DNA of 13,136 bases from a virus (lineage: Duplodnaviria > Heunggongvirae > Uroviricota > Caudoviricetes), in IMG/VR virus record IMGVR_UViG_2695420602_000002; one strand, written 5' to 3'. This document shows positions 1 to 13,136 of this stretch, piece by piece. A program made the translations under genes and the position numbers. The notes beneath the pieces are model-generated. The model worked only from the letters and a program-made list of their open reading frames with translations, did not search any database and was not told the origin of the DNA. Every line of letters begins with the position of its first letter. Within the stretch, counting starts at the first letter, position 1.

Positions 1-1260
1 ATGAAACTTACCGATCTCACGGTACGAAATGCCAAGCCTGATCAGGTCAACAATAAGATTAAGAAACTGAGCGATGGAAACGGGCTATATCTCGCTGTCT
101 ACCCCAATGGGTCGAAGTACTGGCGCTTTCGTAAAGTGATTAACAGTAAAGAAACAACTCGGGCTTTAGGCATCTACCCGGCCATGACACTGGCAGAGGC
201 CAGAAGTGCCAGAGACTCGTATTTGCTTGAGTTATCCAAAGGGATTGATCCCTTGCACACCATAAAGCCTAAAATAACCTCATTTGAGGAAGTTTCCAGA
301 GAGTGGCATACCAGAAAACGTGGATGGAGTGAACCACACGCTAAAAAAGTCCTCAAAGATTTAGAAAATCATATATTCCCTGAAATAGGCAAAAGAGCAG
401 TTAATGAAATAACAACTCAGGATTTATTAACACCCCTTAGAAAAATGGAGGATAAAGGAATACTGGAAACCGCTTCGCGTATCAAACAACGCATGAATGC
501 GATCATGCGCTATGCTGTACAAAGTGGAATAATTAAATATAACCCAGCACAAGAACTGGATGGCGCTTTAGAAACAAATAAAACAAAACACCGCCCCGCC
601 CTTCCTCTTGAACGCTTACCGGAATTATTAGATAAGATTGAAAATTACCATACTCAGTCACACGGGCGGCTATTAACTCAATTAGCTGTAAGACTTAACC
701 TCTTAATTTTTATTCGCTCCAGTGAACTTCGTTTTGCTCGCTGGAATGAAATAGACCTTGATAAATCTCAGTGGATTATTCCAGCGCAACGAGAAGAAGT
801 TAAAGATGTAAGGTTTTCATACCGTGGTGCAAAAATGAAAACGCCTCATACGGTTCCTCTTGCCACACAAGCAATAGAAACTCTAAAGGCAATAAAGGTA
901 ATTTCAGGTGATGAGATATTTGTTTTCCCCGGCGACCACTATCAATCAAAACCGATGAGTGAGAATACAATAAATAAAGCGTTGCGTAATATGGGATATG
1001 ACACGCAATCAGACGTTTGTGGACATGGTTTCCGCGCTATGGCCTGTGCAGCCCTCACGGAGTCTGGAAAGTGGTCAAGAGAAGCAGTAGAGCGTCAGAT
1101 GAGCCACAAAGAAAGAAACTCCGTCAGGGCTGCATATGTCCATCAAGCCGAACATATGGAAGAACGACGCCTGATGTTGCAATGGTGGGGAGACTATCTT
1201 GAGGCCTGCCAAACAGCTTATATTCCACCTTATAAATTTGAATGGTCTTCGAAAAAATGA
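1..1260 (+). CDS. int: P4-type tyrosine integrase (site-specific recombinase, phage integrase family), 419 aa
   Basis: Full-length ORF from the track. N-terminus (MKLTDLTVRNAKP...DGNGLYL) and C-terminal motifs (GHGFRA, HMEERRLMLQWW) match the P4/CP4-type integrase family as recalled. Position next to a tRNA-type att is typical. Confidence 0.9.
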   Translation: MKLTDLTVRNAKPDQVNNKIKKLSDGNGLYLAVYPNGSKYWRFRKVINSKETTRALGIYPAMTLAEARSARDSYLLELSKGIDPLHTIKPKITSFEEVSREWHTRKRGWSEPHAKKVLKDLENHIFPEIGKRAVNEITTQDLLTPLRKMEDKGILETASRIKQRMNAIMRYAVQSGIIKYNPAQELDGALETNKTKHRPALPLERLPELLDKIENYHTQSHGRLLTQLAVRLNLLIFIRSSELRFARWNEIDLDKSQWIIPAQREEVKDVRFSYRGAKMKTPHTVPLATQAIETLKAIKVISGDEIFVFPGDHYQSKPMSENTINKALRNMGYDTQSDVCGHGFRAMACAALTESGKWSREAVERQMSHKERNSVRAAYVHQAEHMEERRLMLQWWGDYLEACQTAYIPPYKFEWSSKK

Positions 1261-1330
1261 TTCTGTGGCGTAGTCAACTTGTGGACACGCCAAAATTTTA
1301 TGCATATAAAACAATTAGATAAAACCGCCA

Positions 1331-1350
1331 AAAGACACAATGTGTCTTTT
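1331..1350 (+). terminator. Weak hairpin downstream of int (AAAGACACA / TGTGTCTTT) followed by a T/A-rich tract
   Basis: 9-nt inverted repeat read directly from the sequence, 70 bp after the int stop. The U-tract is poor, so this is tentative. Confidence 0.25.
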
Positions 1351-1792
1351 ATTAAATAACTTATTGATTTTATTATACAAATCAACCCTTATTCCATTTT
1401 GGAATTAGTGATATTAGTTTCATTCAAAATTTAGCACTAATTTATTGACGAACATCACATTTATAAAGAAAATCTTTATGTTTCCACTTCAATCAGTAGA
1501 CACCTCACCGTTAAATAGAATGACTTTACGATCTACAATAATACACTACCAATCACTATGATATTTTCAAACCGCTTCTAACCGCTTAGAGCTGCTTATA
1601 TTGGTTTGGATTGGGTTCCGAAATTCGATTCATATGAGGACTGAAAAGTCAAATCACATCAATAAGCACCAATTTTACAAAACATCTTACCTTTGATTAT
1701 GATTTCCCTGTCCCGTAAGCCACCGTAAGATCTCATATGATCCACGTTGGGTTGCAAAAAAATGAACGAGCAATATTGTATAGGTGGCTCTT

Positions 1793-2014
1793 ATGTCATT
1801 ACCAACATCATCTAATGAATATAAAACACAGAAACTTATTAGACTTCCAAAGGTTATTGAAATAACTGGAAAGTCAAGAACACGTATTTATGAAGATATG
1901 AAAGCTAACCGCTTCCCTAAAGCAATTAAAACAGGGTCACGTTCAGTCGCCTGGGTTGAACAAGAAATTGCTGAATGGATAGAGGATAAGAAGAAGCAAC
2001 GATTTCAAAACTGA
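1793..2014 (+). CDS. alpA: AlpA-family (prophage CP4-57 regulatory protein-like) HTH transcriptional regulator / excision activator, 73 aa
   Basis: Core LIRLPKVIEITGKSRTRIYEDM...SVAWVEQEIAEWIE closely parallels E. coli AlpA (ILRLPAVIQKTGMARATIYDWL...SVGWIEAEIDEWL, recalled). ATG at 1793 preferred over the GTG at 1784 because AGGTGG lies 5 nt upstream. Confidence 0.88.
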   Translation: MSLPTSSNEYKTQKLIRLPKVIEITGKSRTRIYEDMKANRFPKAIKTGSRSVAWVEQEIAEWIEDKKKQRFQN

Positions 2015-2035
2015 CCATTTATATTTTCAGTCAAT

Positions 2036-2070
2036 AAAAAACGCCTGCGTTTTGCCGAACGAGGCGTTTT
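2036..2070 (+). terminator. Rho-independent terminator after alpA
   Basis: Stem ACGCCT(2041-2046)/AGGCGT(2062-2067) with an inner CGTT/AACG stem, flanked by an A-tract upstream and TTTT downstream. It sits 22 bp after the alpA stop. Confidence 0.6.
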
Positions 2071-2195
2071 AACTGAGTTAATATCTTAACAGGAATCCAG
2101 CAATGCTTTACTTACCGGAACAACACAATTGTATACGTTTTCTTCTGGCGCTTAAAGCGTTTGACAACAGAAGAAAAAATATTCACCGCAGCCTA

Positions 2196-2225
2196 TTGAC
2201 GTCCCACAATGTACTGTCGTATCGT
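2196..2225 (+). promoter_or_regulatory. Candidate sigma70 promoter (TTGACG-N18-TATCGT) driving the leader / small RNA
   Basis: -35 TTGACG at 2196-2201 and -10 TATCGT at 2220-2225, read from sequence. The 18-nt spacer is one longer than optimal. Confidence 0.3.
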
Positions 2226-2231
2226 TTAAGC

Positions 2232-2310
2232 GTTGCCCCTCAATGGGCAATCGGGCGTGGAAACCCGTATCAGTACAAGGCGACATCAGACGCCGATTGC
2301 GTCTTTTTTA
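2232..2310 (+). ncRNA. Candidate small structured RNA / attenuator leader ending in an intrinsic terminator (possible analogue of the P4 immunity CI RNA region)
   Basis: Hairpin TTGCCC-ctcaat-GGGCAA (2233-2250), hairpin CGGG/CCCG (2252-2267), then a terminator hairpin. Lies between alpA and the early operon. No convincing protein in this stretch. Confidence 0.3.
2288..2310 (+). terminator. Rho-independent terminator (AGACGC-cgatt-GCGTCT followed by TTTTTT)
   Basis: Perfect 6-bp GC-rich stem, 5-nt loop and T6 tract read directly. It lies inside the 199-aa track ORF 2103..2702, arguing against that ORF being one gene. Confidence 0.55.
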
Positions 2311-2504
2311 TTGTCGTTAAATCAGTGCCACCATATTCAGCGGAGCAGATCCGCGCAGTATCAATGGTGGCTCTGGCAGGGCAGCTTTCGGGCTGGCCGG
2401 TCTCCTTGTACGCCGGTATTTCCACCCCTGTCAGTGTCACCACCAATCATGAGCGTGGAAACTCCGGTGGTGACTCCTTAATTAAGTACAAGGAGATCAT
2501 CATT

Positions 2505-2702
2505 ATGATGACAACCCCTGCCCCATTGCATCCCCAATTTGTTTGGCTTTTTCTCGCTGTGCGCCGTTCTGACGTGTCCGCACGTCCACACCGTGAAGAA
2601 GTCACCGCCTCAACCTATCAGGCCGCACGCCGCGTTATAGCGCGTGAATTTATCGCCTCTTTTGCCGGTCGTCTGCCGGTTCGCGAGGTGGCCCATGTTT
2701 AA
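2505..2702 (+). CDS. Hypothetical small protein, 65 aa (early operon gene 1)
   Basis: ATG at 2505 preceded by AAGGAG with a 9-nt spacer. C-terminus ...REVAHV is shared with the next gene. Stop overlaps the next start in ATGTTTAA. Confidence 0.5.
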   Translation: MMTTPAPLHPQFVWLFLAVRRSDVSARPHREEVTASTYQAARRVIAREFIASFAGRLPVREVAHV

Positions 2703-2949
2703 CCCCCTTGATAACCAAAAAGCCGCAACACTTAACCCGTTCCATGATAACCACTACGCGCCGCCAGCTTTCATCAAGCCAGGTACAAAAGTAACGGTTG
2801 AAATAGATTCGCGTGAAATGGAGATCGCCATTTTTGCCGCTTACGATTACGGCCTTGACGCTTTGAACGATAAAGGGCGGGACGTCCTGAACCGCTTAAT
2901 TGCTGAATTAAAAGATCGGATAACAGCTCGTGAGGTGGCTCATGTTTAA
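2695..2949 (+). CDS. Hypothetical small protein, 84 aa (early operon gene 2)
   Basis: Internal ATG at 2695 preceded by GAGGTGG. Overlaps the previous stop, suggesting translational coupling. C-terminus ...AREVAHV. Confidence 0.6.
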   Translation: MFNPLDNQKAATLNPFHDNHYAPPAFIKPGTKVTVEIDSREMEIAIFAAYDYGLDALNDKGRDVLNRLIAELKDRITAREVAHV

Positions 2950-3133
2950 ACTGCTTATCACCCTGATTAATCACGAAGCTGGCGACCGGCGCGAACTGGT
3001 TCACATTGGCCGCTATAAAACCCGCGAAGCTGCATGGAAAGACGCGCAGAAAATGGCGTATATCCATAAGAATGCCATCGGCACCGTAACGCATGAATGT
3101 ATTGTGAAAATTGCGGAGGCCGGAAATGTATAA
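2942..3133 (+). CDS. Hypothetical small protein, 63 aa (early operon gene 3; paralog of gene 4)
   Basis: ATG at 2942 preceded by GAGGTGG. Begins MFKLLIT..., similar to the next gene (MYKLFIT...). Stop overlaps the next start. Confidence 0.55.
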   Translation: MFKLLITLINHEAGDRRELVHIGRYKTREAAWKDAQKMAYIHKNAIGTVTHECIVKIAEAGNV

Positions 3134-3320
3134 ACTGTTCATTACCTGCCGTAACGTTATTACTGGCGAAATACAAAATTATCAAAGCACGCAGGAATAT
3201 AAATCATCCGTTAAGGCGGTGAAAGCAGCCTGTAAAATGGCCGATGTTATTACCTGTAACGGGAAATATGCCGATGATAATGAATACACCGTAACAGTCG
3301 GGAAGGTGAAACATGGCTAA
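3126..3320 (+). CDS. Hypothetical small protein, 64 aa (early operon gene 4; paralog of gene 3)
   Basis: ATG at 3126 overlaps the previous stop in ATGTATAA. Shares the M-[FY]-K-L-x-I-T start and a KMA motif with gene 3. Confidence 0.55.
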   Translation: MYKLFITCRNVITGEIQNYQSTQEYKSSVKAVKAACKMADVITCNGKYADDNEYTVTVGKVKHG

Positions 3321-3546
3321 TATCTTTCGCGGTAAAGTAACAAGGAATAAATCTTATCAGGTTTCTGGTTATGCGGTGACGCGTAAAGGTTATACGCGCA
3401 GTGCACAGGTGACGGTTGAGGCGCTTAATCGCGATGATGCAATAATCCGGGCTACGGCCCAGCTACGTTGGGAAGGATTAACGCATTTTAAAGCGCTAAA
3501 GGTGCTGGAAATAATCACGCCATTATTTATTAATCAGAGCCGATAA
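3313..3546 (+). CDS. Hypothetical small protein, 77 aa (early operon gene 5)
   Basis: ATG at 3313 overlaps the previous stop in ATGGCTAA. GGAAGGTG lies upstream. Confidence 0.55.
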   Translation: MANIFRGKVTRNKSYQVSGYAVTRKGYTRSAQVTVEALNRDDAIIRATAQLRWEGLTHFKALKVLEIITPLFINQSR

Positions 3547-3623
3547 CACGTATTTAATCTGAGTCAGTTTAAACCGAATTAATTTTCGGGGGATGCCTTC
3601 ATCCGTCGAAAGAGGACTATGCC

Positions 3624-3887
3624 ATGACAACAAGTAATCATATTCAGAGTGTTAATCCGTCTCACCTCAGTATTGAGAATTATCACAAACTGAATCGCGC
3701 GAGGAATGTCGCATTTCAGATGCATTTACATATTCGCCAGTGTGAAGCTAACGCGATGCCACTCTTATGGATACCGGATATTTTCAGTTATATCAGTGAA
3801 GATATTTCATCAGTACTACAGGAAGTTAAACGCCTGGGGATTTGTGACAAATATCTGGGACATGCTGTACAAGAAGACAAAGAGTGA
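3624..3887 (+). CDS. Hypothetical protein, 87 aa, immediately upstream of the primase (position analogous to P4 epsilon/orf151; function unknown)
   Basis: ATG at 3624 with AAGAGGA 7 nt upstream. The alternative-frame ORF 3706..3903 lacks an RBS. Confidence 0.55.
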   Translation: MTTSNHIQSVNPSHLSIENYHKLNRARNVAFQMHLHIRQCEANAMPLLWIPDIFSYISEDISSVLQEVKRLGICDKYLGHAVQEDKE

Positions 3888-3926
3888 AATAAAAGCGCCG
3901 TGATGAGCGGCGCTTAAGGATTTTAT

Positions 3927-6596
3927 ATGAACAGAAAAGATCTACGCCCCGAAATCATAAAACGACTGGTGCATGATTACCAGTTTAAAGAGCAGAACGG
4001 CTATCTGCGCTCAGGTATTTGCCCTGAATGTAACAAGAAAGAACTCTTTACCAGCATGGAAAATCCTTGGGTGCTGCGCTGTGGCCGGGAAAATAATTGC
4101 GGCGCTGATCTGTCGGTAAAATCGCTCTATCCTGAATTATTTAACTCATGGTCAGATCGCTATGAGAGCACGCCTGAGCAGCCTTTTGCCGCTGCGGAAG
4201 CCTATCTGAGAGAAGCCAGAGGGCTGGATACTACCTGCTTAAAGGGCTGCTATACGCAGGAAAGCTACCATAAGGGCGGCATGGGAAGCGCAACGGTTCG
4301 CTTTGCCCTGTCTGATGGTATCTGGTGGGAGCGGATTATCGACAAGCCAGAACGCTTTGATCGAAAGGCTAACTTCCACGGTAAGTACGCCGGTCACTGG
4401 TGGGTTCCGCCAGCGCTGGATCTGGCTAAAGTCAGTTGTATCTGGCTAACTGAGGGGATTTTTGACGCCATTAGCCTTTATCAGAACGGCACCCCTGCCG
4501 TTTCCATTATGACTGCCGGAAACTACCCGGAAGCCGCGCTTAAAGCGCTTGCTGAACAATTCCAGGGCAAAGAAAAGCCGTTTCTTGTCTGGGCGCTGGA
4601 CAATGGGAAAGCAGGGGAAACAGCCATACGTCGCCATGTGGCGCGGAGCCGTGAACAAGGCTGGAAAGCCGTTGCCGCACTTCCTTCACAGGGGAGCAAT
4701 AAAGCTGACTGGAACGATCTCCACCTTACCGGAAAGCTGACCAGACGACACCAGAAAGAGTACCGCTATTACGGCGATCTGTTGCTGGCGGAAAGCGCCC
4801 GAGATAAGGCGCTTCGGATGTTTGAACATAATGAACGCCCTGAGTTTCACTTCGAATACGGGAACTGCGTGTACTGGTTTAAGCTGGACATTGAGCGCCA
4901 TATGAAGGCCGTTGAGCGTATCCTTAACGATAAAAAAGTTAATGATGAACGTGAAGCCAGAAGTATTGCATTGAAAGAGTCTGGAGCAATTAAGGAAATA
5001 GCCAATTGTCACCCCGCACCGCTGTATTTTATGCGTTCAGAAGTTACAGACGAGTCCTGGTATTATTTTCGCATCGCCTTTCCAGGCAATACACCCGCAG
5101 TGAAAGACTCCTTTACCGCGGGGCAGATCTCTTCTGCGTCTGAGTTTAAAAAGCGTCTCCTCCATGTGGCAAAAGGTGCGCTCTATACCGGAACCAGCCA
5201 GCAGCTCGATGGTCTGATTAAAAAGGATCTGCCCCGGATCAAAGAGGTCAGGACGCAGGACTTTATTGGGTATAACAGGGACTGGCGGGCATGGGTATTC
5301 AATAAGCTGGCGATACATAACGGGAAGGTCTACTCCTTGAACAGCGAAGATTACTTTGAGATTGGTGGGATGAATATCAAGACACTGAGCCGATCCCCGT
5401 TAATCAATATCAATTCTGATGATAATTCGCTTTCGTCAGGCTGGGCCGATGATATCTGGACGGCTTTTGGTGAAAATGGCTATGTCGCGCTGGCATTCTG
5501 GCTGGGAACATTCTTCGTTGAACAGATACGCGAACAGCAGGCCAGCTTTCCCTTTCTGGAGATTATCGGTGAACCGGGAACAGGTAAATCCACGCTGATT
5601 GATTTTCTCTGGCGGCTCTGTGGCAGGGACAGCTATGAGGGAATTGACCCTTCAAAGGGTTCTGTTGCGGGCATTTATCGTAACTTCGCCCAGGTCTCAA
5701 ACCTTCCCGTCGTGCTGCTTGAAGGCGATCGCGCCCAAGACACGAAGAAGCTGCGCGGCTTTGACTTCGATGAGCTAAAACCGCTCTACAACGGGCGCGG
5801 ATTACGGGCGATTGGTGTTAAGACCAACAACAATGAAACCAGAGAGCCGCCATTCAGGGGCAGCATTGTCATCGCGCAGAATGCCACCGTTAACGCCTCA
5901 CCTGCGATACTGGAACGTATTATCCATGTGTTTACGGATAAACGCCGTCAGTCATCGCTGACCAGGGCGGCGGCTGAACGCCTTGAGCGTCTGCCGGTCG
6001 ATCAGGTATCTGGTTTTATGATCCGGGCGGTATGCAGGGAAAGCGCAGTATTGTCGATTATTCAGGAGGTGTATGAGGCCGAAAAAATCAGGCTGGAACA
6101 ACACTCTGAAATTCGTCATATCCGAATTGCCAAAAATCATGCCCAGATGATTGCATGTGTAAGGGCGCTGACCTGTGTTCTGGATATTCCCGCAGAACGC
6201 CTCGATCGCACCTGTGAACAGCTTACTGTGATGGCGGTGGAGCGGGTTAAATCGCTGGAAGCGGATATCCCTGTGGTTCGTGAGTTCTGGGATGCCTTTG
6301 ATTATCTGAATAGCCTGGAGCGTTTCGGCGTCAACCATTTTGGGAAAGAGAATCGCGACGAGATCGCCATTAACTTCCCTCACCTGATGCGTATAGCTGC
6401 TATGCAGCGTGTAAATATTCCCCCGGCGAAAGAAATTCAGGATTACCTGAAAAACGGGCGTATGCGGCCGTGTACGGGCCAGAAGACGGTAAGAAGTGAG
6501 GTTTCCAGACTGGCAAATCAGGGGCGTGGAGAGGCTGGCCCGAAAGAGCCTGAGCAGGTGAAATGCTGGATTTTTAAAGTGCCGGCCGCTCAGTAG
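3927..6596 (+). CDS. Bifunctional DNA primase-helicase (P4 alpha-like): N-terminal Zn-ribbon, TOPRIM-like region, C-terminal P-loop NTPase; 889 aa
   Basis: Cys cluster CPEC...RCGRENNCG near the N-terminus. TOPRIM-like IWLTEGIFDAISL and VWALDNGKAGE. Walker A GEPGTGKS and Walker B-like VVLLEGD. RBS AAGGA 8 nt upstream. Confidence 0.82.
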   Translation: MNRKDLRPEIIKRLVHDYQFKEQNGYLRSGICPECNKKELFTSMENPWVLRCGRENNCGADLSVKSLYPELFNSWSDRYESTPEQPFAAAEAYLREARGLDTTCLKGCYTQESYHKGGMGSATVRFALSDGIWWERIIDKPERFDRKANFHGKYAGHWWVPPALDLAKVSCIWLTEGIFDAISLYQNGTPAVSIMTAGNYPEAALKALAEQFQGKEKPFLVWALDNGKAGETAIRRHVARSREQGWKAVAALPSQGSNKADWNDLHLTGKLTRRHQKEYRYYGDLLLAESARDKALRMFEHNERPEFHFEYGNCVYWFKLDIERHMKAVERILNDKKVNDEREARSIALKESGAIKEIANCHPAPLYFMRSEVTDESWYYFRIAFPGNTPAVKDSFTAGQISSASEFKKRLLHVAKGALYTGTSQQLDGLIKKDLPRIKEVRTQDFIGYNRDWRAWVFNKLAIHNGKVYSLNSEDYFEIGGMNIKTLSRSPLININSDDNSLSSGWADDIWTAFGENGYVALAFWLGTFFVEQIREQQASFPFLEIIGEPGTGKSTLIDFLWRLCGRDSYEGIDPSKGSVAGIYRNFAQVSNLPVVLLEGDRAQDTKKLRGFDFDELKPLYNGRGLRAIGVKTNNNETREPPFRGSIVIAQNATVNASPAILERIIHVFTDKRRQSSLTRAAAERLERLPVDQVSGFMIRAVCRESAVLSIIQEVYEAEKIRLEQHSEIRHIRIAKNHAQMIACVRALTCVLDIPAERLDRTCEQLTVMAVERVKSLEADIPVVREFWDAFDYLNSLERFGVNHFGKENRDEIAINFPHLMRIAAMQRVNIPPAKEIQDYLKNGRMRPCTGQKTVRSEVSRLANQGRGEAGPKEPEQVKCWIFKVPAAQ

Positions 6597-6611
6597 CAGA
6601 GGAACAATAGT

Positions 6612-7592
6612 ATGACCATTAAAAAACGGGCTGACGGGCGTTATGAAGTCGATATTTATGCCAGAGGGCGCAGCGGTAAGCGCTTTCGCAGGATTTTTGA
6701 CAGAAAGCAGGAGGCAGCGCTCTTTGAACGGTATGTTATGGCGAATGCCGATAAAAAAGAGTGGTTGGGCGCCAGCACCGATCGGCGTACTCTCAGCGAG
6801 CTGCTAAACATCTGGTGGCTGCTGTATGGCCGGACGCTGGAGAACGGAAACGCCGAAAAACGACACCTAGATAAAACGATCAGAGCCCTGGGCAACCCGG
6901 CAGTTAACCGGCTGACTAAACGAATCATCGCGCAGCATCGCAGCGAGCGGCTGGATTCAGGGATCAGCACGGCCACCGTCAACCGTGATATATATCGCCT
7001 TTCGGGTATGTTCAGCGCCCTGATAAAACTGGATGAATTCAAGGCTGATAACCCCTGTAAAGGGCTGGAGCCATTGAGGGAGAAACCAGCAGCAATGACC
7101 TACCTTACTAAATCGGAAATCAGTCGATTATTGAATACCCTTACAGGTGACGATCGCCGTGTTGCTCTTTTGTGCCTCAGCACCGGCGCACGCTGGGGAG
7201 AAGGCAGCACACTGCGGGGAGAGCAGATTAACCACGGACGCGTAACTTTTCTTAAAACCAAAAACGGGAAGAGGCGCACGATCCCAATATCGGATGAACT
7301 GGAAAAAGAGATCAAAACCCGCGATTGCGGGCCGCTGTTCAGCGTTGACTATGAAGCCTTTTGCGGGCGGCTTAGGGAGGTTAAGCCGGACCTGCCGCGC
7401 GGGCAGGCTACGCATGTGCTTCGCCATACGTTTGCAAGCTGGTTCATGATGAACGGGGGCAATATTATCGCCTTACAACAAATTCTTGGTCACGCCAGTA
7501 TCCAGCAGACGATGGTTTATGCGCATGTTGCGCCTGACTATCTGCAACACGCCGTTTCACTCAATCCCCTTTCTGGCGGAATCAGCCTCTGA
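6612..7592 (+). CDS. Second tyrosine recombinase / integrase-family protein with an arm-type N-terminal domain, 326 aa
   Basis: C-terminal catalytic signature HVLRHTFAS ... LGHASIQQTMVYAHV (R, H-x-x-R, H, Y). GAGGAA RBS upstream. Starts 16 bp after the primase stop on the same strand. Confidence 0.78.
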   Translation: MTIKKRADGRYEVDIYARGRSGKRFRRIFDRKQEAALFERYVMANADKKEWLGASTDRRTLSELLNIWWLLYGRTLENGNAEKRHLDKTIRALGNPAVNRLTKRIIAQHRSERLDSGISTATVNRDIYRLSGMFSALIKLDEFKADNPCKGLEPLREKPAAMTYLTKSEISRLLNTLTGDDRRVALLCLSTGARWGEGSTLRGEQINHGRVTFLKTKNGKRRTIPISDELEKEIKTRDCGPLFSVDYEAFCGRLREVKPDLPRGQATHVLRHTFASWFMMNGGNIIALQQILGHASIQQTMVYAHVAPDYLQHAVSLNPLSGGISL

Positions 7593-7595
7593 ATG

Positions 7596-7620
7596 ACCGG
7601 CTGACGGGCCGGTTTACCCC
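7596..7620 (+). terminator. Possible terminator hairpin after the recombinase (ACCGGC-tgacgg-GCCGGT, then TT..CCCCTTT)
   Basis: 6-bp GC stem starting 4 bp after the stop codon. The U-tract is interrupted, so support is modest. Confidence 0.3.
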
Positions 7621-7888
7621 TTTCCCTCGTAGCGTAGATATATTCCCTTCGTTTTTAGCTGTTCTGCATTACGCCCTCATCGCCCGGATCACCGTCGTTT
7701 CTGACCGTTCTGCAGCACGGTTAAAAATGACTGTACTCGATGTATGGCCAGCACTGCCGTAAGTGGCAGTGTTTGCCGGAGTGGAGCCATTGCCGGACAT
7801 TTGGCGAAATGACAAAACATTTAACAGAAAAGAAGCCTTTTTTAAAAAAAAGCAGATTTTCCAGAATTTGAGGGGGGGGATCGGAAAC

Positions 7889-8150
7889 GGGTTACAAAAG
7901 TTACAAAGTAAAGATATAAATATATTATATTGATTTATATGTAATTTTCACCAACTTGGAAAAGTTACAACCGGGTTACGATCGGGTTACTCTGTAACCT
8001 TATCTAAAGTTACAACTTAGATATTTAACTGATTGATTTTATTGGGTGTAACTTTAATGGAACCTTTTGTAACCTCACAAAGGTTACAAATTTAATTAAT
8101 ATAAATCATTGAGTTAAGCATATTATTTCACCCCCGTAACCGTTGTAACC
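7889..8150. repeat. Iteron array in both orientations (core GGTTACAA / TTGTAACC) around an AT-rich stretch; putative origin of replication
   Basis: At least nine copies of the GTTAC(A) core. They include tandem GTTACAAA x2 (7891-7907), palindrome GGTTAC-tct-GTAACC (7985-7999), and 11-bp inverted copies GGTTACAAAAG (7890-7900) and CTTTTGTAACC (8064-8074). AT-rich segment at 7905-7950 and a G8 tract at 7872-7879. Confidence 0.5.
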
Positions 8151-8580
8151 GACTTCCGTACCTCCCCTCAGTTTTTCAGTAAAACAGCTCTTTTTCTGTT
8201 AACCCTTTTTTCACACTTCACTTTCAAATCAGCGTGCACCGAGGGCAATAAATCAACATTGTGCAACACGAAAACAGCGTGCATAACTGGCCCGGGCGCA
8301 GCCGGAGTTTGGCTCTTTTTAAGGTGAAAATGATCGCTGCAAAATCACCGCACAAATTTGCACGCTAATGCACAATTTTTTTGATGGTACTTTTGCCACT
8401 CCAGCCCAGACGGGGCACGGCTTTGGCCGGACTGCACATTTGCACAAAAAAGCGGGCTTTCTGCGTGCGGGCGAGGCGGGGGAACAAGCGCGCGCTGAGA
8501 GGTGAGACAGGATGGCATATCCTGATTATTCTCCGGCTTGATGTGATGCGTTTTATAGATGGGTAATGCAGGAAGGTGGA

Positions 8581-8614
8581 TAATGAAAACACCTCTCAGC
8601 GTGGCTCTGAGAGG
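8581..8614 (-). terminator. Intrinsic terminator-like hairpin on the minus strand (CCUCUCAG-loop-CUGAGAGG followed by UGUUUUC)
   Basis: 8-bp stem (plus strand 8592-8599 / 8607-8614) with a 7-nt loop. The U-rich tract exists only on the minus-strand transcript. About 170 bp downstream of the minus-strand RHH ORF. Confidence 0.4.
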
Positions 8615-8784
8615 CTTATATTGCATCTGGTAGTTGATCACATCTTTTTGTGTTAATGCATCAATTTTTTTGAAGGGAACGGCACCCATCAGGCTAGATC
8701 GTGAAGGATTCAAGGGCAGATCTGTACCATATGAGCGTATGCGGCTGGATGTGTAATACACCCGCTCGTACGGGCTGGGCGGGG

Positions 8785-8994
8785 TTATATTCGATGTTTC
8801 CGGCAGGAATCGATCTCAGGAACGGCTATTCGCCCGATCCCTTTAGCCAGCAGACCCGCACCGGCCAGTTCGATCAGGCAACGACAATAGCTCGCACCAC
8901 TTCGCTTGCTCATCGCCACTATGTACTGATCCAGTTCATTGGGGATCCTCAGTGATTTCAGCACCGACCTGTTATTTCTGGGTAATGTGGGCAT
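8785..8994 (-). CDS. Arc/MetJ-like ribbon-helix-helix DNA-binding protein candidate, 69 aa, divergent from the late-like operon
   Basis: Strong SD (AAGGAGGAA) 4 nt before the ATG. Predicted beta-strand/helix pattern RSVLKSLRIPNELDQYIVAMSKRSGASYCRCLIELAG parallels P22 Arc (FNLRWPREVLDLVRKVAEENGRSVNSEIYQRV, recalled). Codon usage is plausible. Confidence 0.45.
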   Translation of the reverse strand: MPTLPRNNRSVLKSLRIPNELDQYIVAMSKRSGASYCRCLIELAGAGLLAKGIGRIAVPEIDSCRKHRI

Positions 8995-9058
8995 AGTTCC
9001 TCCTTTGGCCTGTCTGCATTATCTGCGCAAACCGTCCGGGACGAATGATGCTTATAGG

Positions 9059-9076
9059 TGTAGTACACCCCTGACA
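9059..9076 (+). promoter_or_regulatory. TGT-N12-ACA dyad (P2/P4 late-promoter activator-site pattern) upstream of the 245-aa gene
   Basis: TGTagtacacccctgACA read directly, ~75-90 bp upstream of the ATG at 9150. Ogr/Delta-family activators bind such dyads around -55 (established). One chance match in ~150 bp is not negligible. Confidence 0.3.
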
Positions 9077-9149
9077 ACCTTAACGGTGCGACTGGATTTA
9101 TTTTTCCTGCAATCATTTTCCCATCGCAATAATCACAAGGTGCAGGACG

Positions 9150-9887
9150 ATGACACAAAACAACATGCAGGCATTACTCGTGAGTTACCAGCAGCAGAAA
9201 GAGCTATTTGACCGTGCCTATAAGTCTCTTTCAGACGAAGAGAAGGTGCTTGCCAACCTGAGCGAGACAAAGCGAAAAATAGAAGTGGAGTCAAACGCGG
9301 GCCATAGTGCCGGTGACTGGGGGCTTGCGTTGCTCAGGAACGGAGGCGTTGAAAGTGCGGAAACAGATGGTGCGGCACTGTCCGCAGCGCAGGTGATGGT
9401 AAAGCTTCAAAAAATCCAGGAGTTGATTGAATCCCAGAGCCTGACGGTGCTTGATCTACGGATTCAAACCGCAAGCCAGGCACGCCAGACGAAAGAGGCT
9501 TATTTTAAACTTTCGTCAGTGATTGCGGATTCTTTTCTCCAGTCTCTTAAAGACGACCTCAGAGCGCTGGTTGGTGAGCGATTGTCTGTCGTCATTGGGC
9601 TTTATTCTCTGGCAGGATTAAACACCAGTGATGCAGAAAGAATATTATCAGATGAATTTATGAAGTTACTTCGCGTTGACTCCAGAACGGTTGTACGTGA
9701 ATTATTGAGTGATGCTGACAGTAGTCTTTTCAGCGATCCTGTACTGGCATTTTTCCCCGGTGCATTGTCTGGCAGTATTAACCATGCGTTAAATAACAGT
9801 CCTTCGCCAATTCAGGAATCTAAAGCACGCTCTGATATGGATTATAAGAAGAGACTGGCGGCGGGTATTGAGCCATTCAGAAAATAG
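9150..9887 (+). CDS. Hypothetical coiled-coil-rich protein, 245 aa; possibly a Sid/Psu-like or scaffold-like capsid-associated protein (positional inference only)
   Basis: Good ORF with a Q/E/K/L-rich helical composition. Immediately upstream of the capsid-like gene and Ogr. Length similar to P4 Sid (244 aa, recalled), but no sequence match could be verified. Confidence 0.65.
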   Translation: MTQNNMQALLVSYQQQKELFDRAYKSLSDEEKVLANLSETKRKIEVESNAGHSAGDWGLALLRNGGVESAETDGAALSAAQVMVKLQKIQELIESQSLTVLDLRIQTASQARQTKEAYFKLSSVIADSFLQSLKDDLRALVGERLSVVIGLYSLAGLNTSDAERILSDEFMKLLRVDSRTVVRELLSDADSSLFSDPVLAFFPGALSGSINHALNNSPSPIQESKARSDMDYKKRLAAGIEPFRK

Positions 9888-9924
9888 TCTTGATTAAATT
9901 CATACCATCAATGGAGTTTTTTAT

Positions 9925-10962
9925 ATGAAAAACAGCACCAGAGAAAAATATGATGCATGGTGCTTATTGCAGGCATCACAAAATAAGCTGAACAGTTCAA
10001 AGCTGGATGGGATTTCCTTTTCACTTACACCATCTGCATCGCAAACTATTGTTGATAAGATGCAGGAAAGCGCAGATTTACTTAAACAGATAAATATTCT
10101 GGAAGTGGACGAGCAGGAAGAAGAGTCGATCGGGCTTACATCTGTACCGCTGTCCAGTACGAACAACTCAACGACAGAGGCACGCCAGCCCGTACAAGGT
10201 TGTACAGCAGAGACTGACCGATACCGTTGTGAGCAGGTGAATACTGATACCTATGTTTCTTATGAGAAACTGGATCAGTGGGCGGGCCTTGATAATTTCT
10301 TCGGGCATATGGAGAGCCAGATTTATCGCCGTCAGGCACTGGATGTAATACTGACTGGCATTTATGGCACTCACCATGCGGCTAAATCAGATATTACTGC
10401 TAACCCGTTGCTTCAGGATGTTAATACCGGCTGGTTAGAAAAGTGGCGGCGAAATGCCTCAGCCCGCGTGGTTAATGGTGTATCGGTCAGTCGCCGCAAT
10501 AACGCCAATATTATCGAGTCCAGCGGGGATTACGGTACTATTGACTCTCTGACGATGGAGGCATATCAGGAATTATTAGATCCGTGGCACACCGGGGATT
10601 CAGATCTTGTTGTTATTTGTAATCTCTCATTGATTACAGGAAAGTATTATCCCTTTGTTAATAATCTTGGAGTGACACCAAATAAAGAGTTGCTCGCTTT
10701 AGCATTACAAAATGAGAACCGTCAGATCGGAGGGCTTCCCGTTTGCCCAATTCCGTTCTTTCCTCAAAATGCGATGCTGGTTACTTCGCTTGATAATCTG
10801 TCTTTGTACTGGCAAACAGGAACACACCGCCGCAAAATCTCGGAAGAACCGGAATTTAACCGCGTCTCAACCTATGATTCGTGGAATAACGCCTATGTGG
10901 TCGAAGACTACGGCAAGGGATGCCTGATTGAAGGGATTATCTGGGGTAACGATCAGCGTTAA
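9925..10962 (+). CDS. P2 gpN-family major capsid protein homolog, 345 aa
   Basis: Segments match gpN as recalled from memory: SQTIVDKMQESADLLKQINI (gpN TQTLMNTMQESSDFLTRINI), YRCEQVNTDTYVSYEKLDQWA (gpN YECDQINFDFYIRYKTLDLWA), LLQDVNTGWLEKWR, GDSDLVVI, HRRKISEEPEFNRV...YVVEDYGKGCLIE. The function needs a search to confirm. Confidence 0.6.
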   Translation: MKNSTREKYDAWCLLQASQNKLNSSKLDGISFSLTPSASQTIVDKMQESADLLKQINILEVDEQEEESIGLTSVPLSSTNNSTTEARQPVQGCTAETDRYRCEQVNTDTYVSYEKLDQWAGLDNFFGHMESQIYRRQALDVILTGIYGTHHAAKSDITANPLLQDVNTGWLEKWRRNASARVVNGVSVSRRNNANIIESSGDYGTIDSLTMEAYQELLDPWHTGDSDLVVICNLSLITGKYYPFVNNLGVTPNKELLALALQNENRQIGGLPVCPIPFFPQNAMLVTSLDNLSLYWQTGTHRRKISEEPEFNRVSTYDSWNNAYVVEDYGKGCLIEGIIWGNDQR

Positions 10963-11030
10963 CCCGTCTCCGGTCTGGTTCAGTATGGTATTATTATTGC
11001 GATACTAACCAGACCAGAGGAGAAGCGCAT

Positions 11031-11264
11031 ATGGCTATGCGTTGCCCTCAATGCCATGCAACGGCGAAGACAAGAACCAGCGTTGAACTCAGCGACCTGG
11101 TAAGAAAAAGCTATCATCAGTGCCAGAACCTTAAGTGTGGCCTGACGTTTATCTCTATGACAGAGATTTACTGCACGCTTAACCGTCCCGATTTGCCATC
11201 ACATACCCTTGAAGCCCTTCCACCGGACAAGTTCCCGATCAGCCACCAGGAAAAAACGCTGTAA
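11031..11264 (+). CDS. ogr: Ogr/Delta-family zinc-finger late-gene transcriptional activator, 77 aa
   Basis: C5-x2-C8-x22-C31-x4-C36 spacing with the SYHQCQNLKCGLTF motif (P2 Ogr RYHQCQNVNCSATF, recalled). RBS GAGGAGAAG upstream. Confidence 0.85.
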   Translation: MAMRCPQCHATAKTRTSVELSDLVRKSYHQCQNLKCGLTFISMTEIYCTLNRPDLPSHTLEALPPDKFPISHQEKTL

Positions 11265-11271
11265 ATACCCA

Positions 11272-11300
11272 TGCAGCCCCTATCTATAGGGGTTGCAGTG
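11272..11300 (+). terminator. Hairpin after ogr (GCAGCCCCTAT / ATAGGGGTTGC, one G-U) with a weak U tail
   Basis: 11-12 bp stem starting 8 bp after the ogr stop. The tail GTGCTTTAACA has only a short U-run. Confidence 0.35.
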
Positions 11301-11352
11301 CTTTAACAGCGGTGATAGATATCGCTAATAACAGGCCAGTAGTACGCTATCA

Positions 11353-11374
11353 AACGGGTACAATAACGGGTACA
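11353..11374. repeat. Tandem direct repeat AACGGGTACA x2 (candidate integrase arm-type sites in the attR arm)
   Basis: Two perfect 10-bp copies 12 bp apart, about 60-80 bp from the tRNA-like core. An IHF-like site TATCAATAAGTTA lies at 11403-11415. Confidence 0.3.
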
Positions 11375-11428
11375 TCTAACAGCCAATAAAACTATAATCA
11401 ATAAATATCAATAAGTTAAATTAAAAGA

Positions 11429-11448
11429 CGATTCCTGCAGGGACACCA
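11429..11448 (+). other. attR core: 3'-terminal fragment of a tRNA gene (T-loop/T-stem/acceptor/CCA), most like tRNA-Arg argW
   Basis: CGATTCCTGCAGGGACACCA ends in ACCA with T-stem and acceptor 3' halves but no 5' half, so it is a repeat copy and not a gene. The recalled argW 3' end is GGTTCGATTCCTGCAGGGGACACCA. Confidence 0.55.
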
Positions 11449-11888: not shown

Positions 11889-13136
11889 CTATATTGCTGA
11901 AGGTACAGGCGTTTCCATAACTATTTGCTCGCGTTTTTTACTCAGGAAGAAAATGCCAAATAGCAACATCAGGCAGACAATACCCGAAATTGCGAAGAAA
12001 ACTGTCTGGTAGCCTGCGTGGTCAAAGAGTATCCCAGTCGGCGTTGAAAGCAGCACAATCCCAAGCGAACTGGCAATTTGAAAACCAATCAGAAAGATCG
12101 TCGACGACAGGCGCTTATCAAAATTTGCCACGCTGTATTTGAAGACGGATATGACACAAAGTGGAACCTCAATGGCATGTAACAGCTTCACTAATGAAAT
12201 AATCCAGGGGTTAACGAACAGCGCGCAGGAAAGGATACGCAACGCCATAATCACAACACCGATAAGTAATGCATTTTTTGGCCCTACCCGATTCACAAAG
12301 AAAGGAATAATCGCCATGCATAGCGCTTCGAGTACCACCTGGAATGAGTTGAGATAACCATACAGGCGCGTTCCTACATCGTGTGATTCGAATAAACCTG
12401 CATAAAAGACAGGAAAAAGTTGTTGATCAAAAATGTTATAGAAAGACCACGTCCCCACAATAAATATGACGAAAACCCAGAAGTTTCGATCCTTGAAAAC
12501 TGCGATAAAATCCTCTTTTTTTACCCCTCCCGCATCCGCCGCTACGCACTGGTGATCCTTATCTTTAAAACACATGTTGATCATCATAAATACAGCGCCA
12601 AATAGCGAGACCAACCAGAAGTTGATATGGGGACTGATACTAAAAAATATGCCGGCAAAGAACGCGCCAATAGCATAGCCAAAAGATCCCCAGGCGCGCG
12701 CTGTTCCATATTCGAAATGAAAATTTCGCGCCATTTTTTCGGTGAAACTGTCAAGCAAACCGCATCCCGCCAGATACCCCAGGCCAAAAAAGAGCGCCCC
12801 CAGAATTAGACCTACAGAAAAATTGCTTTGCAGTAACGGTTCATAAACGTAAATCATAAACGGTCCGGTCAAGACCAGGATGAAACTCATACACCAGATG
12901 AGCGGATTCTTCAGACCGAGTTTATCCTGAACGATGCCGTAGAACATCATAAATAGAATGCTGGTAAACTGGTTGACCGAATAAAGTGTACCTAATTCCG
13001 TCCCTGTCAACCCTAGATGTCCTTTCAGCCAAATAGCGTATAACGACCACCACAGCGACCAGGAAATAAAAAAGAGAAATGAGTAACTGGATGCAAAACG
13101 ATAGTACGCATTTCTGAATGGAATATTCAGTGCCAT
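11889..13136 (-). CDS. cscB: Sucrose:H+ symporter (LacY-family MFS oligosaccharide permease), 415 aa
   Basis: Full ORF whose start is the last base of the window. The sequence (MALNIPFRNAYYRFASSYSFLFF...) matches E. coli CscB as recalled and shows LacY-family motifs and multiple hydrophobic spans. Confidence 0.85.
   Translation of the reverse strand: MALNIPFRNAYYRFASSYSFLFFISWSLWWSLYAIWLKGHLGLTGTELGTLYSVNQFTSILFMMFYGIVQDKLGLKNPLIWCMSFILVLTGPFMIYVYEPLLQSNFSVGLILGALFFGLGYLAGCGLLDSFTEKMARNFHFEYGTARAWGSFGYAIGAFFAGIFFSISPHINFWLVSLFGAVFMMINMCFKDKDHQCVAADAGGVKKEDFIAVFKDRNFWVFVIFIVGTWSFYNIFDQQLFPVFYAGLFESHDVGTRLYGYLNSFQVVLEALCMAIIPFFVNRVGPKNALLIGVVIMALRILSCALFVNPWIISLVKLLHAIEVPLCVISVFKYSVANFDKRLSSTIFLIGFQIASSLGIVLLSTPTGILFDHAGYQTVFFAISGIVCLMLLFGIFFLSKKREQIVMETPVPSAI

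Follow-up and report, generated by a model that had tools for sequence, protein, structure and literature searches.

What kind of mobile element joins a P4-type integrase and regulatory arm to a capsid gene of the P2 family? The question is raised by a 13,136-nucleotide stretch of DNA from a Caudoviricetes virus record (IMG/VR IMGVR_UViG_2695420602_000002), the whole of which was analysed and is called the window here, and in which positions 1-11448 form an integrated element. A first-pass annotation made from the letters alone had listed int, AlpA, an early operon, a primase, a second recombinase, a capsid gene and Ogr, and had proposed a distinct or hybrid satellite lineage. Gene finding and family searches confirmed each of these genes in its place, and the hybrid character was borne out as well: the left arm shares homology with P4 (int, vis, cI and epsilon) and the right arm with P2-like phages, and the whole element was compared with P4 and with deposited phages and satellites, none of which proved similar to it over an extended length of DNA. 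The list of genes was nevertheless incomplete, in that the CI RNA, the epsilon gene, a Sid-like gene and the late promoter had been overlooked. We propose that the element is probably a satellite of P2-like (Peduoviridae) helpers that would combine P4-type regulation with a capsid-building pair of its own, namely a P2-family major capsid protein and a putative remote homologue of Sid, the external capsid-size scaffold of P4.

The first member of this pair belongs to the family of P2 gpN over its full length. It scored 236 bits against the NCBIfam equivalog TIGR01551 (cut-off 220) and could be aligned with P2 gpN from end to end at 39% identity, with conservation of the N-arm, whose residues form helix alpha-0 (PMC7552001). 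Identity to P2-family capsid proteins ranged from 39 to 55%, and the nearest capsid proteins of deposited phages, those of SEN4/SEN5, were 49% identical. Neighbour joining, without support values, placed the capsid proteins of small elements (those of the window and of its 99% cluster, of Rahnella, of Pantoea and of the Logan locus L025) in one long-branched clade, apart from the copies verified in complete P2-like prophages. Gene calls and family searches found no portal, terminase, protease, connector or tail gene among the open reading frames (ORFs) of the window. PADLOC found no defence system in the window, and the element is therefore no defence-cargo element.

The second member is encoded by the preceding gene. 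Two close clusters of this Sid-like protein were returned by a word-indexed search of 5.8 billion proteins, and 12 representatives of its family by an exhaustive HMMER search of 1.84 billion proteins. Sid was its top sequence match in the PDB, a match that is non-significant alone. When the profile of the family was compared with that of the Sid family, residues 6-133 were matched to Sid residues 10-135 with 94.3% probability (E = 1.1e-7); this part of Sid is its coiled-coil stem (PMC7552001). An AlphaFold model built from 14 sequences reached a pLDDT of 87.5 and a pTM of 0.73, superseding a model from 3 near-identical sequences that was unusable (pLDDT 50). Among 350,542 chains searched with Foldseek, Sid (7jw1) ranked first (probability 1.00, TM 0.54/0.56 over 241 columns) and Psu second, with the caveat that long helical hairpins draw generic structure matches. 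The length of the protein, 245 aa, compares with 244 aa for Sid. Profile and fold matches, equal length and the same place behind the same promoter motif led us to accept it, subject to this caveat, as a putative remote homologue of Sid. The alternative of a diverged internal scaffold was dropped, the BLASTP match to P2 gpO (28% over 71 residues, E = 0.005) not being meaningful.

The promoter motif concerned, TGT-N12-ACA, is the activator-site motif of Ogr/Delta in the late promoters of P2 and P4. In P4 it stands at −90 relative to sid, and 8 of the 9 loci of the Sid-like family show it between −90 and −95, while the inner 12 nucleotides vary. Two matches occur in the window, where 2.6 would be expected per window; the second (1137-1154) lies inside int, far from start codons, and was set aside as chance. 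The 69-aa protein encoded divergently from the late operon has counterparts in Pantoea, in Rahnella and in L025, which are homologous at E = 1e-8 to 3e-10 and encoded at the same position; it has no match in protein-family searches, and from its sequence pattern it is a possible ribbon-helix-helix regulator. Ogr is 33% identical to the second half of P4 Delta, and the capsid gene sits in the part of the operon that is occupied by psu in P4.

In every locus that could be read throughout (the window, L028, L029, Rahnella L010, Pantoea L005-7, L025 and L034), the Sid-like gene lies beside a P2-family capsid gene, within small elements that also have Ogr and an Int_N integrase. This fixed pairing suggests that the two proteins act on each other, and it bears on a different role that the capsid homologue could play. 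Like the Ccm protein of the satellite SaPIbov5, it might co-assemble with or poison helper gpN, biasing assembly toward small shells or blocking helper heads. Ccm offers the precedent of a capsid-protein homologue that enters small capsids while the helper capsid protein is still required (PMC6893505, PMC8569155); the satellite protein retains the whole gpN architecture including the N-arm, which makes mixed assembly conceivable, and its clade is long-branched. Given that a putative Sid homologue is located directly upstream and always paired with it, however, the Sid-like protein would rather be the size determinant and the capsid protein its substrate. In addition, the identity of the window protein to P2-family capsid proteins is high for a specialised modifier, whereas Ccm is 23% identical to the capsid protein of its helper. 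We regard the Ccm-like role as unlikely for these reasons, and keep to a matched pair of capsid protein and external scaffold as the preferred reading of the late operon. The features of the element are collected in Table 1.

Table 1. Features of the element, with positions in the window
Feature	Position	Strand	Remarks
Integrated element	1-11448		Single unit; window starts at the int ATG
P4-family tyrosine integrase (int), 419 aa	1-1260	+	argW-specific; Pfam Arm-DNA-bind_3, Phage_int_M, Phage_integrase
AlpA/Vis-type excisionase-regulator	1784-2014 (RefSeq start 1793)	+	PF05930, 8.8e-19
Early operon, small genes	2103-3887	+	
ORF across the immunity RNAs; annotation Icd-like or Ash	2103-2702	+	PF10554; phrog_6928 at 2e-51
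isrK-like RNA element	2232-2309	+	Rfam RF01394, 57 bits (gathering score 50)
C4-family antisense RNA, P4-type CI immunity RNA	2360-2447	+	Rfam RF01695, 79 bits (gathering score 45), full length
Four small overlapping early ORFs, 84, 63, 64 and 77 aa	2695-3546	+	RefSeq annotation; called in Logan contigs
Epsilon-like helper-derepression protein, 87 aa	3624-3887	+	PF25738 'Derepression', 6e-20
Toprim primase with P-loop region, 889 aa, replication protein	3927-6596	+	Toprim_2, Toprim_3; phrog_1139 full length, 1082 bits
Second tyrosine recombinase (int2), P2-like phage integrase type, 326 aa	6612-7592	+	Int_N and Phage_integrase
Mostly non-coding stretch	7600-9150		
Iteron cluster, probable replication origin	7891-8149		A+T-rich flanks
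P2/P4-type cos core, GGCGAGGCGGGGGAACAAGCGCGCGC	8470-8495	+	
Small conserved protein, 69 aa	8785-8994	-	Divergent from late operon
TGT-N12-ACA late-promoter motif	9059-9076	+	91 nt before the Sid-like ATG
Sid-like protein, 245 aa	9150-9887	+	Putative remote homologue of the P4 external capsid-size scaffold; first gene of a three-gene operon
P2-family (gpN-like) major capsid protein, 345 aa, full length	9925-10962	+	PF05125, 6e-99, positions 2-327 of 327
Ogr/Delta zinc-finger late-gene activator, 77 aa	11031-11264	+	Single domain like P2 Ogr; PF04606, 1e-15
Two tandem arm-type repeats, ACGGGTACA	11354-11374	+	Presumed Int arm-binding sites of attP
attR core	11429-11448	+	Copy of the tRNA-Arg(CCT) 3' end

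Selection on these genes was estimated by comparing the window with two Logan variants, at a synonymous divergence (dS) of 0.18-0.5. The ratio of nonsynonymous to synonymous substitution (dN/dS) was 0.05-0.08 for the capsid gene, 0.07-0.12 for the Sid-like gene, 0.04 for int2, 0.06 for the primase and 0.05-0.17 for ogr. Such purifying selection indicates that all five are working genes and not debris. The element could alternatively be seen as a decaying, immobile remnant, in which a gene-poor P2-like prophage has come to lie next to P4-like debris; its rarity in complete E. coli genomes and the loss of nearly all virion genes are in line with such a view. By contrast, every ORF is intact, with the low dN/dS ratios (0.04-0.17) just given between copies whose dS reaches 0.5, and the cos site, the promoter motif, the iterons and the att arms are conserved. 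Furthermore, the organisation is kept across genera, and near-identical copies are present at the same site in many unrelated samples. Taken together, these observations make a decayed remnant extremely improbable.

The boundaries of the element were read from E. coli KCJ3K291, which carries a copy reported as 100.0% identical over 1-11448, with one 1-nt length difference. According to the first-pass annotation, the element ends at an attR that is a tRNA fragment, and a complete tRNA gene with a matching repeat should lie upstream of int. A tRNA scan of the window found none because the window begins at the int ATG; in KCJ3K291, a tRNA-Arg(CCT) gene ends 178 bp upstream of this ATG, and its last 21 nucleotides, CGATTCCTGCAGGGGACGCCA, are repeated at the right end as CGATTCCTGCAGGGGACACCA (20/21), as both parts of that prediction had it. 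The repeat in the window has one G fewer, with GGG at 11440-11442 against GGGG in KCJ3K291 (L001 15440-15443). It is single in the window, and none of 200 shuffles matched it, even at 3 mismatches. These ends place the integration site at argW, inside the E. coli tRNA-Arg(CCT) gene. From the repeat-to-repeat distance, the excised circle would measure ~11,627 bp, P4 being 11,624 bp in length. A search of the KCJ3K291 copy for the pattern ACGGGTAYA returned four sites, all of them att-proximal, with two before attR and two between the tRNA and int; an additional partial copy, CGGGTACA, was spotted by eye immediately upstream of int. The annotated arm repeats of P4 attP are similar in layout.

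The exact integrase sequence was found in 189 blocks of a public assembly collection. Among the blocks shown, the same gene set follows int in 8 of 8 and a yfdC-type gene precedes it in 7 of 8, while in the eighth another prophage lies between the yfdC-type gene and int; in other assemblies, too, int was found just after yfdC-tRNA-Arg. The element is thus rare in finished genomes, yet no singleton.

Beyond position 11448, the window continues as ordinary E. coli chromosome with a LacY/CscB-type permease gene on the minus strand. In KCJ3K291, intS of the CPS-53/KpLE1 remnant follows the element (L001 15611-16768) instead of cscB, and in another assembly an integrase-bearing prophage that encodes P22_Cro, a Peptidase_S24 repressor and RdgC is interposed between the tRNA side and the element (L018 8383-9552). 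The presence of both at this place suggests that argW is a site of tandem stacking of several elements. In approximately 2,600 other E. coli genomes, the match to the window sets in only at 11352, 11393 or 11401, often with a DUF4942 gene adjacent; given that these matches reach up to ~80 nt inside the right end, other argW islands appear to have the attR-proximal sequence in common. One Logan contig (ERR9955051_142, L003) is 11,631 nt long, the length of the element, and ends inside the att core. It could be an excised or packaged form or a mere break in the assembly graph; no conclusion in favour of an excised circle was drawn, the overlap of its ends being unlike that of a simple circular unitig and its first 112 nt not being readable.

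The left arm is P4-like in sequence except for the replicase. The integrase aligns with P4 Int over 416 aa at 52% identity (E = 9e-157), and the AlpA-type protein is 32% identical to P4 orf88/Vis. A sigma-70-like site (2196-2225) is located directly upstream of the isrK-like element. When the P4 cI locus was searched in turn, it gave a C4 match of 74.9 bits with an isrK match just upstream, so that the order is the same as in the window, and the leader preceding the CI RNA of P4 corresponds to the isrK-like element. Given both matches in the order seen in P4, this part of the element is an immunity region of the P4 CI-RNA type. The ORF running across the two RNAs shows 50% identity to its counterpart, the 'cI' ORF of P4, and its C-terminal part may be the only portion that is translated. 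The Pfam Ash match of this ORF (residues 50-146) overlies the DNA encoding the isrK-like and C4 RNAs; the Ash protein family may thus in part represent the translation of a conserved RNA gene, comparable to the old 'cI protein' ORF of P4. The four small ORFs that follow had no family match in Pfam, PHROGs, NCBIfam or PADLOC. The epsilon-like protein, which closes the early operon, is 47% identical to P4 epsilon.

The replicase had been described as a P4-type primase, and this assignment did not hold. Only short Toprim and P-loop patches align with P4 alpha (best E = 0.007), and the protein is assigned by sequence to another family, phrog_1139, with the same predicted role. The ori/control region proposed at first holds the probable origin, here recognised as an iteron cluster, and also a cos site of the P2/P4 type that had been missed. 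All seven copies of GTTACAA in the window fall within the cluster, in both orientations, where 1.8 would be expected per whole window, and the repeat families D1, D2, I2 and I13 are found there, making this the probable origin of replication. In a Scandinavium relative, the iteron stretch has been swapped along with the replicase gene, while the intervening int2 was retained.

At the DNA level, int2 is 76.5% identical to the integrases of the P2-like phages SEN4/SEN5 and phiT5282H, and its protein is 66% identical to the sole integrase of the Pantoea element (326-aa Int_N). Use of a second integration site and resolution of multimers are both possible roles. Downstream of int2, the non-coding stretch 7690-7786, with a hairpin at 7746-7777 and direct repeats (7646-7673 and 7692-7719) beside it, is 77-88% identical to unannotated intergenic DNA of P2-like phages. 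Its counterpart in SW5 is flanked by a DNA methylase gene on one side and a small gene adjoining the replication endonuclease on the other, and that in phiT5282H adjoins tfaE; in SI7, no feature is annotated at the match. The stretch might be a terminator, the attP of int2 or a part of the packaging region.

The first 12 nucleotides of the cos core are those of the P2 and P4 cohesive ends, a match that none of 200 shuffles gave, and are followed by their GCGCGC continuation. A 160-nt region was aligned with the joined P4 cos at a score of 88, compared with 47 +/- 6.6 for shuffles. A search with the exact P2 cos 19-mer, allowing up to 3 mismatches, gave no match because of an extra G in the window, and it was the 12-mer together with the alignment that located the site. 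Window positions 8374-8483 are 71% identical to non-coding DNA of a complete P2-like prophage; this DNA lies at a distance of 2.3 kb from the portal gene and presumably contains the cos of that prophage. The core is identical in the otherwise diverged copies L028 and L015. By its sequence, the site links the element to packaging by a P2-type terminase. A minus-strand ORF running across the core (8345-8761, 114-138 aa), which is called as a gene in some assemblies, was rejected as spurious on account of having no family match and no homologue in related elements.

The right-hand module is shared with elements of other genera. In Pantoea stewartii, a 186-type CI repressor, DUF2732, TraR and gpA precede a 326-aa Int_N integrase and a small minus-strand gene; the Sid-like gene follows, matching that of the window at E = 5e-19, and then a small ORF, the capsid gene and Ogr. 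Directly beside this small element, some strains (L006 and L007, 13191-21050) have a complete P2/186-like prophage; its integrase is 39% identical to that of the element, and the two are a candidate helper-satellite pair in one locus. The Rahnella element reads P4-type integrase, helix-turn-helix (HTH) protein, Ash, gpA, Int_N integrase, three minus-strand genes, Sid-like gene, small ORF, capsid gene and Ogr. The Scandinavium relative is 86% identical to the window in the left arm and 90% from cos to Sid, with a different replicase, and its contig ends inside the Sid-like gene. In locus L034, HTH and Ash precede a DUF927-type primase and an Int_N integrase, with Ogr, the Sid-like gene and a capsid protein of 420 aa behind them. 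A scan of species-representative genomes, which used exact peptide patterns and is no census, returned nothing with the capsid protein, and Scandinavium and Pantoea only with the Sid-like alignment. On this sequence evidence, int2, cos, the Sid-like gene, the capsid gene and Ogr make up a module of P2-like descent that is joined to varied immunity and replication modules, and the window holds the version joined to a P4-type front end, making it a hybrid lineage.

Two further features were noticed among these loci. A free-standing N-terminal Terminase_5 domain of gpP (101-108 aa) is encoded on the minus strand between cos and the Sid-like gene in Rahnella (L010 8332-8658, 108 aa) and in L025 (249-554); it is 29-36% identical to P2 gpP residues 3-89 and might redirect or block the helper terminase. 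The window is without such a protein. In E. coli STEC367 (NZ_CP041429, L033 75-10668), a different satellite occupies the same argW site, with the same cscB flank as window positions 11889-13136. It opens with int and an HTH protein, which are followed by a 291-aa protein without detectable relation to Sid or gpO and by a very divergent P2-family capsid protein, with 24% identity to that of the window; an Icd-like ORF, a Toprim primase of 889 aa, an Int_N integrase and Ogr come next, in this order. This locus indicates that capsid-bearing P4-type satellites exist in more than one architecture.

The modular nature of these loci raises the possibility that the window holds not one element but two, a P4-like island from int to the primase and a mini-P2 from int2 to ogr, which are arranged in tandem or fused and move independently. 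A P2-type integrase in the middle of the element would fit such an arrangement, as would the Pantoea right-hand module, which has no P4-type arm, and the swapping of modules between relatives. However, no internal copy of the argW core separates the supposed elements. Taken alone, the left part has no cos, Sid or Ogr and the right part no replicase, and the iterons of the primase lie to the right of int2. The joint layout, defined as P4-type integrase (where the locus reaches that far), replicase, int2, Sid-like gene and capsid gene (where the contig continues), recurs in Rahnella, Scandinavium and diverged E. coli copies, and the total length equals one packaging unit of P4 size. We therefore hold two independent elements to be very unlikely and treat positions 1-11448 as one satellite.

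In the cycle that we envisage for this satellite, epsilon would lift the repression of a P2-like helper, either resident or infecting, and the Ogr proteins of helper and satellite would activate each other's late promoters. Excision by Int and AlpA would be followed by replication from the iterons. The satellite capsid protein would then assemble on the helper portal together with the gpO scaffold/protease, while an external cage of the Sid-like protein would force a small (T=4-size) shell with room for 11.6 kb and not for the ~33-kb helper genome. Finally, the helper terminase would cut the satellite DNA at cos and package it, with the helper also providing what is needed for head completion, tail and lysis. 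Having a matched capsid protein of its own, the satellite would no longer depend on that of the helper for size redirection.

Several points weigh against this proposal. Only one of 5,426 complete E. coli genomes, that of KCJ3K291, carries the element, and no helper was identified in a host genome. No ORF of the element resembles Psu, and an hhalign comparison of the Sid-like family with Psu gave 2.5%. The proposal leaves int2 without an explained role. Moreover, we infer excision, replication, helper dependence, packaging and capsid size alike from the DNA.

A further step can be suggested tentatively, and in our view with more doubt than confidence: the element might represent an undescribed satellite class in which a capsid protein co-evolves with its matching external scaffold, and a living intermediate in the derivation of the P4 sid-delta(-psu) region from a P2-like phage. 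In that case, portal, scaffold/protease, terminase and tail would be all that the satellite needs from the helper, and it would be immune to 'sir'-type escape mutations in the helper capsid protein. The layout of cos, a gene P remnant (in relatives), a Sid-like gene in the place of gene O, N and ogr resembles a stripped P2 late region. If true, the hijacking module of P4 would have come from a P2-like phage and not from a plasmid-like ancestor. The element could serve as a test case for the co-evolution of external scaffold and capsid and for the origin of this module.

How does the element compare with known systems? Capsid piracy has its textbook example in P4, and the family of P4-like satellites has been described as devoid of packaging and virion proteins and as sharing very little homology with phages (PMC8628076, Moura de Sousa and Rocha). 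According to reviews, proteins that clearly resemble Sid are not found in phages. A P4-like satellite with a gpN homologue is not described in the searchable literature, which omits most subscription journals. The marker set by which SatelliteFinder defines P4-like satellites comprises int, alpA, epsilon, alpha, sid, delta and psu. Four of the seven (int, alpA, epsilon and delta) are clear in the element, Sid is putative and remote, and psu and alpha are lacking; with such a score, elements of this type are probably missed by current satellite finders, and satellite censuses may undercount them.

In common with P4, the element has a tRNA-site integrase, Vis/AlpA, a CI (C4) RNA with an isrK-like leader, epsilon, an activator of the Delta/Ogr type, a protein of predicted Sid fold encoded first in the late operon, TGT-N12-ACA at the same distance from it, a P2-type cos and a length of 11.6 kb. 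It differs from P4 in having a gpN-like virion gene and an extra P2-type integrase, in the lack of Psu and alpha, in a Sid that is related only remotely, and in an Ogr of 77 aa with a single domain where Delta has 166 aa. The gene order is also unlike that of P4, as the first-pass annotation had pointed out: it runs int, early operon, primase, int2, ori, cos, late operon, attR, with the early operon after int and the late operon running into attR, whereas in the P4 prophage the late operon is on the int side and points to int, and the early operon is directed toward the far end.

With P2 and P2-like prophages, the element shares the capsid family, Ogr, an Int_N-type integrase, the cos core and a late-promoter motif between divergent genes. 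On the P2 map, ogr lies at the attR end, as it does in the element. The position of P2 gene P holds a remnant of the N-terminal domain of terminase gpP in relatives, and the Sid-like gene of the element takes the place of P2 gene O. By contrast, portal Q, terminase P/M, scaffold O, tail, lysis, C repressor, Cox and gpA are lacking, whereas the complete P2-like prophages with related capsid genes possess the full set of portal, terminase, scaffold, tail, C-Cox and gpA.

SaPIbov5 with its Ccm is likewise a cos-packaged satellite encoding a homologue of the helper major capsid protein that is tied to small capsids (PMC5052747, PMC8569155). Its host and helper family are unrelated to those of the element, and Ccm comes without an external scaffold, whereas the capsid gene of the window is paired with that of a putative Sid homologue. 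The capsid-forming phage-inducible chromosomal islands (cf-PICIs) also encode their own capsid protein and obtain the remaining parts from a helper. They differ in that their head module is complete, with capsid protein and portal as well as protease, connectors and terminase subunit(s), while the element has the capsid and Sid-like genes only, and its regulation is P4-type and not PICI-type. The helpers of PICIs of the PmCI172/EcCICFT073 type are Mu-like or lambdoid phages, and we know of no Ogr or P2-type cos in such islands. PmCI172 and EcCICFT073 (PMC6893505), which were compared by description only, are small gammaproteobacterial islands that likewise combine integrase and AlpA with a capsid-protein homologue; for PmCI172, the helper was described as a Mu-like myovirus, and no Sid-type protein was identified. 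By its gene content, the element is thus neither a cf-PICI nor a P2-like prophage. If it works in the way envisaged above, its capsid strategy would stand between that of P4, which steals everything, and that of the cf-PICIs, which build the whole head.

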